From: Eledone cirrhosa
Lineage: Eukaryota
Assembly: GCA_964016885.1 (NCBI GenBank)
Contig: OZ024743.1
Span: forward strand, 197,718,001 to 197,782,000
DNA: 64,000 bases
Reading direction: 5' to 3'
In this document: positions 1,855 through 62,381 of the stretch, in pieces
How positions within the stretch are numbered: position 1 is the first letter of the stretch
Layout of the letters: each line of letters starts with the position of its first letter
The notes under the pieces: model-generated
The model's database searches: none
What the model was told of the DNA's origin: nothing
What the model saw: only the letters and a program-made list of their open reading frames with translations
Position numbers and translations under genes: made by a program

Positions 1855-2016
1855 TTTAATATAGAAAAGGCTTCTACAGGACTTCCTGATGATTTCTCCC
1901 GAATGAAGCAGTTCTAGTCCCGTAGAAGCCTTTTCTATATTAAATATTTAAACTCTGCTTTGTATTGAGTACCTTACTTACTATGGTTACCTCCGATTGA
2001 ACCCGGGATAAACTTA
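1855..2016. mobile_element. (TA)n-flanked fold-back element, family J (HHR-like)
   Basis: Inverted arms TTAATATAGAAAAGGCTTCTAC / GTAGAAGCCTTTTCTATATTAA; CTGATGA-TTTC-TCCC-GAAT-GAAG at 1886-1908; relatives at 9030-9170, 14315-14500, 14535-14592, 27530-27585, 32995-33105. Confidence 0.85.
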
Positions 2017-2431
2017 TATATATATATATATATATATATATATATATATATATATATATATATATATATATATATATATATATATATATATATATACATA
2101 TATATATATATATATATATATATATATATATACTGTATATATATATATATACCTGTATTACTTTTGTGCATAACGTTGCACGTGTATGGAAATAATAGTT
2201 AAGAAGTCTCTCAATAGTGAAGATTTTTAAATAACCATTTCCCGTGACTGTCTAAGTTAATTTAAATATATATATATATATTTACTTCTCAACCAAGTAT
2301 TCACTGGAACCAGAAATATATTAAAAAAATTGTGTGTGTGTGTGTGTGTGTGTAATATATATATATATATATATATATATATATATATATATATATATAT
2401 ATATATATATATATATATATACATATATATA

Positions 2432-2742
2432 TAGTTAGCGTTTATACGAAGGAGAAAAGGTTTAAAATAAATTTCAACACATTTTACTTTATATATCAGA
2501 AAGAAGGCTAAATTGAATCGTTATATTTTCTTTACCTTATTTTTCCTTTTCCCATTACATACTACATACATACATATAAATATGCATACATACATACATA
2601 CAAATATACATATATATATATATATATATATATATATATATATATATATATATTCTATTTAGACTTCTTTCTGATATATAAAGTAAAATGTGTTGATAAT
2701 TTATTTTAAACCTCTTCTCCTTCGTATAAACGCTAACTATAT
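2432..2742. mobile_element. (TA)n-flanked fold-back element (no HHR seen)
   Basis: 2432-2508 is the reverse complement of ~2662-2742. Confidence 0.8.
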
Positions 2743-2844
2743 ATCAAGCCAGTACATTGATCAATTTAGCAATAGAAATACACATAGCGTATTCGTGTGA
2801 AAATGCCTATTGTCCGTCCATACAGTAGTATTTTAAAATAATTT

Positions 2845-3003
2845 TTTCTACTTTTGGCACAAGGCCTGCAATTAACCTCGTGCATTATTGGTACTTTATT
2901 TTATCGACCCCGTAAGGATGAAATGCAAAATTAACCTCGGCGGGATTTGAACACAGATCATAAAGGGGCGTAACTCTATGCTGCAAAGCATGGCATCCGA
3001 CTT
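2845..3003 (-). mobile_element. tRNA-derived SINE (Meta-domain-like family)
   Basis: Reverse complement of the family seen intact at 16329-16521. Confidence 0.85.
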
Positions 3004-3819
3004 TAATAATAATGTCTAAGACTACGCCCTTGTTTGTCATAGGGATTGCAGGGACATAGCATATATTATGTTTTCTTGTAATATGTACAAACACACACAC
3101 ACACACATATATATATATATATACACACACACACACACACACACACACACACACACACACACACACACACACACACACACACATATATATATATATATAT
3201 ATATATATATATATATATAGCTATTAACTAGTTAATTTTTTTGATTTTTTTAGTTAATTCTACTGATTAATAGCTTATGTTAAATTTAAAAAACTAATCT
3301 GTTTATAGCTTAATTCGTTTTGTGATATTTTGCAATTTTGTAATAACCATACATACTGAATTCATCCGCCAAGACTAGGGGTTGTCTCCATTCTAACCCC
3401 CCACGTGGGTTTAGATAACGGCCAGTGCTTAGCTTTGCATAGAACTAAATGCCTGTTGAAAAAGTGATTTCCTTGTTCGATCATCATACCAAAAGCTTAA
3501 CATTATTTGTTTAAGCAGACAGTACCTGATTTAGGAGTTGCAGAAACCCCATATTGGATTTTGCCACCGTTTCCAGGGGTCCGGGTACAGTTTTCAATCA
3601 TATTTTATTTTTGTTTCACTCGAATAACTTCGTCGTTTCTATGGCTGTGCGGATAATGGTTTAACCATCGCCTCAGTGTGTTTGGCCTTTTAACGTACGT
3701 TGTTGCTCTAGTTCACTAGTTTCTATGGAGCGCTTGCCACTCATCTCGGAAGTTATTTTTCGCTAATTTCCAATAGCCGAAATGCGATTCTCGCTAATTT
3801 ATATTTGTATATATATATA

Positions 3820-4605
3820 TGAAGTTAGTCCTTCATCAGTGATCTTCCAACCTTCATTGGTATTTCATCGCTTTAATGACCATATAACTCCGGTTGGTGC
3901 GAGCAACGACTAAAGAAAGTCGTTGGGACACGTAAATAAGGGGAACGAGCGAGACTGTAAACAATCAAAGATGGTAATGCAACGAAAAGTGAGGAAGAAG
4001 GAGTCAAGTCCCAGAATTCTATAATATAAGTTCTGTGAAATCGTGGACGAAAGAGAATAAAGACCATCAAACCTAGTCGAAATGTCAGCAAGGAAGGAAT
4101 TCCGCACAGGTCAAACGGGAGGAAGAAGGAGTCTAGTCCTTGAATTCGGTGAACATAAGTTCTGTGAAATCGTAGACAAGAGAGAAAAAAAAGGAACAAC
4201 CAACCTGGTCAAGTGTGCGCGAGAAAAGAATTACGCACAGGTCAAACGGGAGGAAGTAGGAGAGGGAGTAGCAGAGAGTGAGTGATTTTCCAACCTTCAT
4301 TGGTATTTCGGGACTAGACTCCTTCCCCCTCCCGTTTGACCTGTGCCGAATTCTTTCCTTGCTTACATTTCGACTAGGTTTGATGGTCTTTATTCTCTCT
4401 CGTCCACGATTTCACAGAACTTATATTCATGGAAATCTGGGACTTGACTCTTTCTTCCTCACTTTTCGTTGCATTACCATCTTATTTACGTGTTCCAACA
4501 ACTTTCTTTAGCCGTTGCTCGCACCAACCGGAGGTATATGGTCTTTAAAGCGATGAAACACCAATGAAGGTTAGAAGATCACTGATGAAGGACTAACTTT
4601 ATTCC
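3820..4605. mobile_element. (TA)n-flanked fold-back element with ~125 bp internal repeats
   Basis: 3820-4260 is inverted relative to 4280-4600; a further plus-strand copy lies at 11500-11945; orphan CTGATGAAGGAC near the 3' end. Confidence 0.85.
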
Positions 4606-4649
4606 TATATATATATATATATATATATATATATATATATATATATATA

Positions 4650-4830
4650 TATAAAACAAAGAGATTGTGGTAAGATAATAGGTGGACAATAATGCACCGG
4701 AGTACTCTATTCTTCGGGTAGTAGAGTGGCTAATAGGAAAACAGTCAGGACCCTTATTGGTGGCTTAGTTCGGATCTAGCTGTCGAAACGGCTGGAGTTC
4801 AGCCATTGGGGTCCTGACTCTTTTCCTATA
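4650..4830. mobile_element. (TA)n-flanked fold-back element, family I
   Basis: TAGGAAAACAGTCAGGACCC / GGGTCCTGACTCTTTTCCTA arms; same family at 9728, 10575, 37055, 40560, 41590, 62203. Confidence 0.85.
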
Positions 4831-4929
4831 TATGTATATATATATATATACTATATTATATTTAGAGATTAAACTCTTAGTCGTTTACAATTAATCAGCT
4901 CAAAGAAAGAGGCATTTCTGAGCAGTGAA

Positions 4930-59619: not shown

Positions 59620-60427
59620 ATATATATATATATATATACATATATATATATATATATATATATATATATATATATATATATATGTATATATATATATATA
59701 TATATATATATATATATATACACATACATATATATATATATATATATATATATACACATACATATATATATATATATATATATATATATATATAAATATA
59801 TATATATATATATATATAAATATATATATATATATATATATATATAAATATATATATATATATATATATATATATATATATATATATATATATGTATATA
59901 TATATATATATATATATATATATGTATATATATATATATAAATATATATATATATATATATATATATATATATATATATATATATATATATATATATATA
60001 TATATATATATATACATATATATATATATATATATATATATACATATATATATATATATATATATATATATACATATATATATATACATGTATATATATA
60101 TACATATATATATATATATATATATATATATATATATATATATATATGTATATATATATATATACATATATATATATATGTATATATATATATATATATA
60201 TATATATATATATATATATATATATATATATATATATATATATATATATGTATATATATATATATACATATATATATATATGTATATATATATATATATA
60301 TATATATATATATATATATATATATATATATATATATGTATATATATATATATATATATATATATATATATATGTATATATATATATATATATATATATA
60401 TATATATATATATATATATATATATAT
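59619..60427. repeat. ~800 bp (TA)n microsatellite
   Basis: Directly visible. Confidence 0.97.
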
Positions 60428-60470
60428 CAATGATATTAATAAATGGAAACTATCTTTATAAAACCATATT

Positions 60471-60533
60471 TATTTTATTATATATATATTTCACGGGTAC
60501 CAAAATTTTGGTTCGCACTCATCAGACAAAATA
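60471..60533 (-). ncRNA. Minimal hammerhead ribozyme, family B
   Basis: Minus strand TATTTTGT-CTGATGA-..ACCAAA-at-TTTGGT..-GAAA-TATATATA-TA-ATAAAATA. Confidence 0.72.
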
Positions 60534-61348
60534 CAAAGGTTGTTATATAAATATTGACATATCCCCAAAACAAGAACTTATCGTTTTAAGTTCAGTTTGG
60601 ATAGTCATAAATAAATTTGTTGAATAACCAACAAATTAAATATCTCTTTGCTTATATATATATTATAATTCGTTAAAATAGTAAAATAGTTACACATAGA
60701 GGTACTTACGTATCGTTGGGTTATACACCCCAACTCATTGAAACAGTCTGAAGTACCTATATATGTCACTGTTGTAATTAATTATACTTAACACGCCCTA
60801 TGAACTGAGTGCTCTTACGCTTGGATATTTCTACCAAAACTTGTACTAGGGTGTACTGGCAATATTATAACATTATGACCCTCCCCAAGTATAACAATAT
60901 ATATATATATATATATATATATATATATATATATATATATATATATAAGCAAATGGATATTTAATTTGTTGGTTATTCAACAAATTTATTTTTGACTATC
61001 CAAATTGAACTTAAAACGATAATTTCTTGTTTTTTGGATATGTCAATATTTATAAAACAACTTTTGTATTTTGTCTGATGTGGGCGTACCAAAATTATGG
61101 TGCCCTTGAAATATATATATATATATATATATATATATATATATATATATATATATGTATGTATATATATATATATATATATATATTTATATATATATAT
61201 ATATGTATGCACTTCAAAAGTAAGTGCATAAATACAATGTACACTGACTAAATATAGGAATCAATACAACTTAATTAACAGGGACCTCGAAGTTTTTCCA
61301 GTGTGGTCAAACCTTATATTTTGAAAGGGCATCTATACATTGTATATA

Positions 61349-61650
61349 CAGGGTGGCCCAAAAGACGCGATACATAAAAAATAATTGTTTCTACTTTAGG
61401 CACAAGGCCAGCAATTCACCAGTACATTACTGGTACTTTATTTTATCGACCCCATAAAGATGAAAGGCAAAGTTAACCTCGGCGGGATTTGAACTCAGAC
61501 TGTAAAGGGACGTAACTATGCTAGAAAGTATAGCGCCCAGCCCTCTACCGATACTGCCAATAATAATGTTTTATAAGAAACATTCATTCAAAGTAAATAA
61601 ATATGGAAACTTAAACATTTCCTATGTACTGTGACTTTTGGGCCACCCTG
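61349..61650. mobile_element. Tc1/mariner-type MITE with a nested SINE (61381-61561, minus)
   Basis: Perfect 16-bp TIRs CAGGGTGGCCCAAAAG / CTTTTGGGCCACCCTG flanked by TA. Confidence 0.9.
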
Positions 61651-61664
61651 TACATATATATATA

Positions 61665-62110
61665 ATAACTAGAAATTGATTAACATATAAATAAACATGA
61701 ATAATCACAGGAGATAATTTTTACAAGTGTGTAACCACACATAGCTAGGTGGGTAACTAAATAAAGTTGACCAGAACTTCAAAAATAGATACCTTATAAT
61801 ATGATTAATCTCCCCTGTATATATTCCATTAAAGAAATATATTTTACCAATTAATCGGACGATAAACCCAGGTAGGTAACTAAATAAAGTTCTGGTCAAC
61901 TTTATTTAGTTACCTACCTAGCTATGTGTGGTTACACACTTGTAAAAATTATCTCGTGTGATTATTCATGTTTATTTATATGTTAATCAATTTCTAGTTA
62001 TTTCTAGAATCTTAGACTTATTTTGCGGGTGATATGGCGCATGTCTTTCTGGCATGACACCCATAATTTTGATTTAGATTAAATTCATTTGATTTATCTT
62101 AATTTTGGAT
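61665..62110. mobile_element. (TA)n-flanked fold-back element (same family as 40168-40500)
   Basis: 61666-61776 inverted at 61889-62001. Confidence 0.88.
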
Positions 62111-62202
62111 ATATATATATATATATATATATATATATATATATATATATATAAACACACACACACAGACATATATATATATATATATATATATATAGAT
62201 AT

Positions 62203-62381
62203 ATGAAAATGTTTGACCCCGACGGCAGAGCTCAACCCGGTTCGACGGCTATTTCTGAAATAGCCGTCTAAACGGCTTGAGTTCTGCCGTCGGGGTCAAA
62301 CATTTTCCTATTACCCACTCTACTATTGAGTACTATGGTGCGTTATGGTCCATCTGGTTCCTTACCACACCTCCTTCGTTA
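62203..62381. mobile_element. (TA)n-flanked fold-back element, family I
   Basis: Palindrome centred on CGGCTATTTC-T-GAAATAGCCG. Confidence 0.9.

Follow-up and report, generated by a model that had tools for sequence, protein, structure and literature searches.

What are the inverted-repeat insertions that crowd the (TA)n tracts of a 64,000-nucleotide stretch of the Eledone cirrhosa genome, and how were they made? The stretch, called the window below, covers positions 197,718,001 to 197,782,000 of contig OZ024743.1, in an assembly (GCA_964016885.1) of 3.0 Gb in 1,796 contigs. A sequence-only reading had described about 20 such insertions of 150-800 bp in about 10 or more families, had seen a hammerhead ribozyme fold in at least eight of these, and had taken them for truncated or non-autonomous Penelope-like elements (PLEs). 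Our answer, to which we assign a probability of about 0.9, is that the insertions are the 3' ends of at least seven coding PLE families together with several non-coding, hammerhead-bearing units that these enzymes probably copy as well; the insertions sit within or next to (TA)n, often as two head-to-head arms. The layout, the linkage to open reading frames (ORFs), the fixed ends and the excess of motifs were observed here, while the priming on two strands and the two start sites used to explain them are taken from in-vitro work on another PLE.

Insertions in (TA)n and their coding relatives

The insertion list was curated by hand, with local inverted pairs taken from a masked self-BLAST and with family labels (F1 and so on) that are our own. 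We sort its 40 insertions into about 19 families; 23 are fold-backs, 162-790 bp in size, which bears out the earlier count. For 38 of the 40 a run of TA, 8 nt or longer, begins no more than 25 nt away on one side or both, and 27 have such a run on both sides, where the background rate is 0.11 for each 30-nt window; any target-site duplications would be hidden within these tracts. The 3' ends face outward in the fold-backs examined.

By tblastn, PLE protein similarity was absent from all 64 kb, in line with the earlier statement that the window has no reverse transcriptase (RT) or GIY-YIG ORF for these elements. The RT ORFs that are present were ruled out as the driver, having the APE, RT and zf-RVT layout of L1/Tx1-type long interspersed nuclear elements (LINEs); copies of this type lie at 16628-17650, 17983-23670 and 54789-58179, one with a 767-codon open stretch.

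The genome was searched with 11 family queries, giving 40 to 4,312 candidates each, of which 40 were scored and 14-30 loci retrieved. Linkage was then judged by tblastn with five PLE protein pieces from the retrieved loci, counting similarity on the same strand at most 1.5 kb upstream in top-hit loci, window copy excluded; a GIY-YIG regular expression had given false matches in microsatellites, and tblastn was used in its place. Such similarity was found for F14 (18/29 loci), F15 (6/19), F4 (6/15), F13 (4/15), F9 (5/29) and F8 (3/29), and F11 is tied to a Hydra-type ORF in two loci. The 3' untranslated region (UTR) is preceded by RT and then, at the C terminus, GIY-YIG endonuclease (EN) in a full frame for F15, as RT plus EN for F14 and F8, and as EN or RT/EN fragments for F4, F9, F11 and F13. 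We accordingly describe these seven families as 5'-truncated 3' ends of autonomous PLEs with GIY-YIG or RT plus GIY-YIG ORFs, and they have the traits of EN-positive PLEs: 5'-truncated copies, partial tandems, an inverted 5' copy and a tail at one end only. The proposal of PLE-type retroelements targeting (TA)n is borne out in that the families, when extended in the genome, run upstream into PLE ORFs and not into transposase terminal inverted repeats (TIRs). The description of the elements as non-coding holds in part, for the units of F7, F12, F3 and F10, in which no PLE ORF was found, but the seven families above are 3' UTRs of coding PLEs.

Four of the seven look Hydra-type. The F8 protein has RWR, DKT, CxCX5C, CxxC and CxH and lacks CCHH, which corresponds to the diagnostics given for the Hydra clade (RWK-like and DKT motifs, a CxCX5C linker, CxxC/CxH, no CCHH; Craig et al. 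2021, PMC8557442); F4 shares the linker, CxxC and CxH and likewise has no CCHH, and F11 and F13 are placed here by tblastn similarity only. The (TA)n target, the inverted 5' copy and a type-I hammerhead whose stem II starts with a U.U or an additional base are further likenesses, and Hydra-1_Obim of Octopus bimaculoides is listed with both (TA)n preference and a hammerhead in the supplement to that paper. What differs is that at least four Hydra-type families occur in one window, none with the hammerhead of Hydra-1_Obim as far as can be judged by eye, and that they have long 3' UTRs (about 0.3-1.3 kb), a U3-A8 core with full stem III in F4, and the word GAGYRC in their tails. Their window copies are an F8 fold-back with hammerheads in both arms (8347..8825; 8719 plus, 8533 minus); an arm of an F8-like subfamily on the minus strand (37256..37512, hammerhead at 37445) with relatives at 40633-40801, 60428-60653 (core 60525) and 60947-61110; an F4 3' UTR on the plus strand (10013..10632); an F4 fold-back at 9729..9917 and others of its type at 4655-4829, 37056-37244 and 62199-62379; an F11 fold-back (26780..27273); and an F13 fold-back on the minus strand (27341..27518).

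The other three, F14, F15 and F9, have a linker of Neptune/Nematis type, an assignment made by motif that does not separate the two clades: F14 and F15 have a CX2-5CxxC-type linker and CCHH, and F9 shows both in linker and EN fragments. Minimal palindromic hammerheads are a further likeness. F15 is young, with an open 775-aa frame matching RVT_1 and GIY-YIG and with several copies that match the whole 236-nt query at 100% identity. It differs from these clades in an upstream frame that overlaps the RT frame in the -1 phase; this frame, of 414 codons, was present in all copies seen (L202:2146-5621, also loci L201 and L204), with a TTTTTTA heptamer in the overlap, downstream of which no strong fold was predicted. 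Among the best matches of one element protein, the named eukaryotic homologues were from bivalve molluscs. In the window, F15 is a fold-back with hammerheads in both arms (39588..40029; 39872 plus, 39803 minus), F9 a fold-back (12085..12452) and a plus-strand single arm (8886..9027, by family match), and F14 a plus-strand single arm at 51513..51987, the 3' UTR of a PLE with a CX4CxxC linker and GIY-YIG (hammerhead 51868-51903), a minus-strand single arm at 39186..39545 (family match) and a fold-back at 41357..41928 (hammerhead 41490 minus). This last copy is a chimera in which an F4 piece lies between two F14 arms, which suggests template switching between different element RNAs or a nested insertion.

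Inverted ends and TA flanks would also be expected of DNA transposons that insert at TA, either miniature inverted-repeat transposable elements (MITEs) or elements of the foldback type, and the hammerhead motifs would then be incidental. We give this explanation hardly any credence. Symmetric TIRs, a fixed length and a transposase partner were not found; instead the arms are asymmetric, with a tail on one side, the lengths form a 5'-truncation ladder and single arms are frequent, while seven families run into PLE ORFs and the motifs lie far above shuffled expectation. The refutation applies to the seven ORF-linked families, its scope excluding F2, F5, F17 and F19.

Non-coding units and the hammerhead motif

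In five further families no PLE-protein similarity was found by tblastn within 1.5 kb upstream (F3 0/13, F7 0/19, F12 0/19, F1 0/15 and F10 0/29 loci). Three of them form head-to-tail units without an ORF, of about 429 nt in F7, 522 nt in F12 and 622 nt in F3, with tandem copies within 1.5 kb in 10/19, 11/19 and 9/13 loci respectively, compared with 0/15 for F1; a relative of F7 forms a 7-unit array in locus L244. These three are retrozyme-like tandem non-coding units, to which F10 adds a single non-coding unit of about 2.28 kb, tandem in two loci (L205, L207) and without a credible PLE protein match, probably a large non-autonomous hammerhead element. It is likely that PLE enzymes copy these units. 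F7, F12 and F18 (a 464-nt unit related to F7 and tandem in one locus, L204) resemble the animal non-long-terminal-repeat retrozymes (PMC7229834; bioRxiv 10.64898/2026.07.22.740005) in being tandem non-coding units with a type-I hammerhead (about 430-480, 522 and 464 nt), and the second of these accounts argues that animal retrozymes derive from PLEs. The units here differ in carrying a PLE insertion footprint of (TA)n and inverted arm, in the incomplete core of F3 and in the size of F10 (2.3 kb against lengths given there as 51-972 bp).

In the window, F7 is a plus-strand insertion with an inverted 5' copy (5349..5994), and F12 on the minus strand comprises one full unit plus partial and inverted copies (13642..14288). 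F3, a young unit with copies 98-99% identical (also in locus L299), appears as a fold-back (3822..4611) and as a plus-strand single arm with tail (11497..11940), F10 as a fold-back with hammerheads in both arms (10710..11464; 11352 plus, 10960 minus), and F18 as a fold-back recognised by family comparison (59272..59618). F1, traced to 568 nt and non-coding as far as traced, is represented by a plus-strand fold-back with a short inverted and a tail-bearing arm (1855..2016, decayed hammerhead at 1886), by a fold-back at 14313..14501 (self-BLAST and family match) and by its longest copy, of 568 nt with an internal duplication of about 180 nt, on the minus strand (9033..9600).

The hammerheads themselves were scored with a strict type-I descriptor: a CUGANGA or UUGANAA core, stem I of at least 4, stem II of at least 3 and a palindromic loop III. 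A first version, without the extra base or mismatch at stem II, matched F8-like sites only and was relaxed thereafter. With the strict descriptor the window yields 11 sites, whereas 100 local dinucleotide shuffles averaged 0.01 and never had more than 1, so the motif count does exceed that of shuffled sequence; the bare word CUGANGA (37 against 23.6 +/- 5, maximum 36) is weak evidence taken alone. A systematic sample of the genome, 59 ten-kb stretches or 590 kb in all, gave with a looser descriptor 26 motifs with palindromic loop III and 8 with full stem III, classes that each occurred 0-1 times in every one of 8 shuffles, and 37 of another class against a shuffle mean of 8. The sequence of loop III varies while its palindrome is kept (UAUAUA, UGCGCA, CCGG, GUAC, CG, CUAG, CUAAUUAG, CCAUGG), and stem II begins in most motifs with an additional nucleotide or with a mismatch, which is usually U.U. 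Given this short palindromic loop III, most motifs are predicted to cleave as dimers only, as in tandem transcripts; the F4 motif, with its full stem III, is predicted to be active as a monomer. The extra base after A9, the palindromic loop III, the U3-A8 variant, the many families per genome and the opposite-strand motif pairs 100-700 bp apart are all features of the minimal PLE hammerheads of Cervera & De la Pena (2014, PMC4209133).

A type-I hammerhead lies near the 3' end in F4, F8, F9, F13, F14 and F15; each unit of F7 and F12 contains a complete one, and F18 has one on the reverse strand. Among the eight sites of the sequence-only reading, those with cores at 8719, 12343, 13768 (minus), 39872 and 51872 satisfy the strict descriptor, and that at 11352 does so once a stem II of at least 2 is allowed. 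The remaining two, at 5696 in F7 and 27460 (minus) in F13, are decayed copies of families whose majority sequence is intact: the F7 motif (5691..5731, plus strand, loop III CUAG) was recovered from the motif scan and the family majority sequence, and the F13 copy has one stem I mismatch. Some details need correction. The motif at 12339 has a U3-A8 core (UUGAAAA) and not CUGANGA, and this F9 fold-back carries it in both arms (12343 plus, 12255 minus); the motifs placed at 13694 and 27427 are present, both on the minus strand (the F12 one at 13773-13694); and an intact site with a U3-A8 core and full stem III, at 10525 in F4, had been overlooked. Nor need the families contain the fold independently, as had been claimed: shared descent is the simpler reading, because PLEs in general carry a hammerhead (PMC4209133). 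Further hammerhead families outside the window, with loops CCACUGG, GAAC and CAAUG or with full stem III, occur in sample loci such as L122, L127, L133, L242, L246, L253 and L259.

Two families depart from the pattern. The majority core of F11 is CAGAAGA, with U4 changed to A (window 27055-27273; loci L124 and L134), in an abundant family with 14 insertions in the 590 kb; its activity may be doubtful, or it may be a new variant. The 622-nt unit of F3 has no complete type-I hammerhead, only a CUGAUGA half-core preceded at a distance of about 25 nt by GAAA. The possibility of a permuted (type II) hammerhead was considered for it and is unsupported by eye, stem II not closing next to GAAA; the half-core recalls the label 'HHR_half_core' on some Naiads in the supplement to PMC8557442. 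Rfam gave 335 matches in the window, the top 150 of which include no hammerhead; it gave none in a targeted scan of 10480-10632 and no ribozyme match in the F3 unit. This is not evidence against hammerheads, because the curated models do not fit these variants. Since the top Rfam matches in the window were sub-threshold microRNA families, automatic pipelines could misannotate short fold-backs as microRNA hairpins, or as MITEs or short interspersed nuclear elements (SINEs).

Do the hammerheads contribute to mobility at all? They could be catalytically marginal passengers, or structures that bind or stall the RT, with cleavage playing no part, and to this we lend appreciable weight, though short of even odds. 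Minimal motifs show low activity in vitro (PMC4209133), hammerhead mutants leave insertion by a Poseidon PLE unaffected and cleavage there needs protein (PMC11167929), many copies here span the cut site, and F3 manages without a full core. On the other hand, the core, the U3-A8 covariation and the palindrome of loop III are kept across unrelated families, and circular templates would suit the arrays of several units formed by F7, F12 and F3. A genome with a young open-frame family (F15) next to young non-coding units (F12, F3) offers a dense natural test bed for the role of PLE hammerheads and for which PLE enzyme moves which retrozyme.

Arm geometry and insertion

Each family measured has two fixed 3' ends at a characteristic spacing: 46 nt in F15, 61 in F9, about 70 in F1, 72 in F4, about 80 in F8, 86 in F11 and 138 in F10. 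To these ends we apply the mechanism seen in vitro for the Poseidon PLE PAc (Frangieh et al. 2024, PMC11167929), where both target strands are nicked and extended, two internal RT starts bound a tail and hammerhead cleavage is dispensable. By analogy, the GIY-YIG endonuclease would nick both strands of the self-complementary (TA)n target, and the RT, primed by each nicked 3' end, would begin copying the element RNA at either of two fixed internal positions, the tail being the stretch between them. If the two complementary DNAs (cDNAs) stop early and their truncated ends are joined, the product would be a fold-back with its tail facing out, in which one arm bears the tail and the other lacks it. 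The hammerhead lies 17-200 nt upstream of the RT starts, and because most copies span the predicted cut site, we infer that the RNA templating them was uncleaved, or re-ligated into a circle. Poseidon belongs to another clade and host, and the main text of that paper does not apply the mechanism to head-to-head arms; the arm counts here fit such an extension, and thereby connect the chemistry published for the two start sites with inverted insertions that have long been known.

These counts come from 74 fold-backs at loci not picked by the search with that family itself. In 24 of them it is the tail-less arm that extends further 5' and in 14 the tail-bearing arm; in 32 the two are equal, and in 4 both arms have the same 3' end; full-length inverted arms occur, up to a full-length ORF in locus L201. 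The alternative is that a single first-strand cDNA snaps back on itself, with no priming from both target strands. Equal 5' reach in 32/74 is what it would predict, and the F4 junctions do cluster at a hairpin: 88/113 F4 copies end at stem II, 120-139 nt from the tail, a peak to which subfamily divergence may add. Snap-back from one cDNA cannot, however, make the 24 fold-backs in which the tail-less arm is longer, including the one in L201, so that both arms are most simply templated from RNA and snap-back as the sole route is excluded. With the extension of both strands seen in vitro for another PLE (PMC11167929) also against it, we consider snap-back an unlikely origin of the fold-backs.

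Several observations nevertheless weigh against the combined account of PLE ends, hammerhead units and two-strand priming. As many as 32/74 equal arms show coupling or stalling beyond what independent priming alone would give, and 22 of these 32 are F4, joined at the hairpin of hammerhead stem II (as in the copy at 9729..9917). Tails of 46-138 nt exceed the published 30-40 bp. The half-core of F3 and the CAGAAGA core of F11 mean that a canonical ribozyme is not universal, and hammerhead function is throughout a prediction from the sequence motif. The clade calls are motif-based and not tree-based, and the lack of an ORF in F1 and F10 refers to 15 and 29 loci with 1.5-kb flanks (about 8 kb in six F10 loci). 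Finally, the account leaves out F2, F5, F17, F19 and the piece at 60660-60897.

Genome-wide scale, the tail motif and other features

Strict motifs number 28 in the systematic sample, or 47 per Mb, which extrapolates to 142,000 genome-wide (bootstrap 71,000-234,000). A conservative count, dropping three AT-rich matches in L236 as likely false and counting the 7-unit array in L244 once, gives 19, or 32 per Mb and 96,000 (range 56,000-142,000), and the looser descriptor gives about 3x10^5 after background subtraction. The claim that ribozymes would be a major component of this genome is overstated: at about 50 nt each the motifs make up, by extrapolation, 0.2-0.5% of bases. Enrichment in the window is about 3-fold, its families covering 18.8% of it against 5.9% of the sample, which holds at least 91 insertions of 15 families. 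(A SINE-like repeat of about 190 nt, e.g. 2834-3001 and 16152-16520, had entered one family reference; it was masked and coverage recomputed.) Published counts are 4,000 hammerheads in coelacanth and 9,000 in Xenopus (PMC4209133), and, according to PMC7229834, more than 6,000 for a coral, some 5,000 for a mussel and as many as 120,000 for axolotl, whose genome is 28 Gb (bioRxiv 10.64898/2026.07.22.740005). Our estimate of 32-47 strict motifs per Mb thus stands against 2,000-9,000 per genome for minimal PLE hammerheads (PMC4209133), a loose comparison because the descriptors differ.

The elements belong to a described kind, Hydra-type and Neptune/Nematis-type PLEs in truncated form with retrozyme-like riders, and are unusual only for the estimated number of motifs; hammerheads, (TA)n targeting, inverted copies and tails have all been published already, including for an octopus Hydra PLE. 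A literature search on octopus hammerhead ribozymes returned the Craig preprint as the only item concerning PLEs, and one linking Penelope elements, twin priming, inverted copies and microsatellites returned nothing relevant. A 2026 repeat annotation of O. vulgaris reports 31 recently active Penelope-like families, the words 'ribozyme' and 'hammerhead' being absent from its main text.

A possible new lead is a quasi-palindromic word, YYGAGYRC, within the tail that the two fixed 3' ends delimit. It is present in all four Hydra-linked families (F4, F8, F13, and F11 as the variant GAGCCC) and in F1 and F10, and absent from the examined 3' ends of F9, F14, F15, F16, F12, F3 and F7; F18-type motifs have a match 135 nt downstream in 3/6. 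The chance of it in an 80-nt tail is 0.007, for a pattern chosen after the data were seen. It may be a promoter or an RT/EN recognition element of Hydra-type elements. Window examples lie at 62324-62333, in an F4 tail, and near 60797. In the PMC8557442 supplement a similar word can be seen by eye near the 3' ends of Hydra-2_Amil and Hydra-2_Ajap and near the 5' end of Hydra-1_Ajap, and none was seen by eye at the 3' end of Hydra-1_Obim as given there. A bolder combination, which we offer tentatively and regard as doubtful, is that hammerheads are exceptionally dense in this genome, a hot spot with about 1-3x10^5 of them and some ten times the published animal density per Mb, in which GAGYRC(TC) in the tail licenses RNAs for the Hydra enzyme, F1 and F10 riding Hydra elements and F7, F12 and F3 those of another clade. 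If true, GAGYRC would serve as a code, written in the sequence, by which PLEs and retrozymes are paired.

Among the remaining fold-backs, those of F16 (40168..40500 and 61664-62108) belong to a family with an upstream Hydra-type ORF in one locus only. F2, on the minus strand (2433..2738), has a tail, no hammerhead seen and no second copy among the loci then retrieved; F5 (4856..5318) also has a tail, with no hammerhead in the part examined; and F17 (40815..41045) was found by self-BLAST. Two dispersed repeats lie among them. The abundant SINE-like repeat of about 190 nt, often with (ATT)n-type flanks and unrelated to the fold-backs, occurs at 2834-3001, 15677-16520, 29076-29335, 31756-32115, 34509-34909, 47830-48030 and 61374-61561. 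A second repeat, of about 510 nt and with (TATG)n at its end, is present at 1181-1690, 25077-25432 and 38672-39181 with 94-96% identity, and is probably a LINE 3' end or a SINE.

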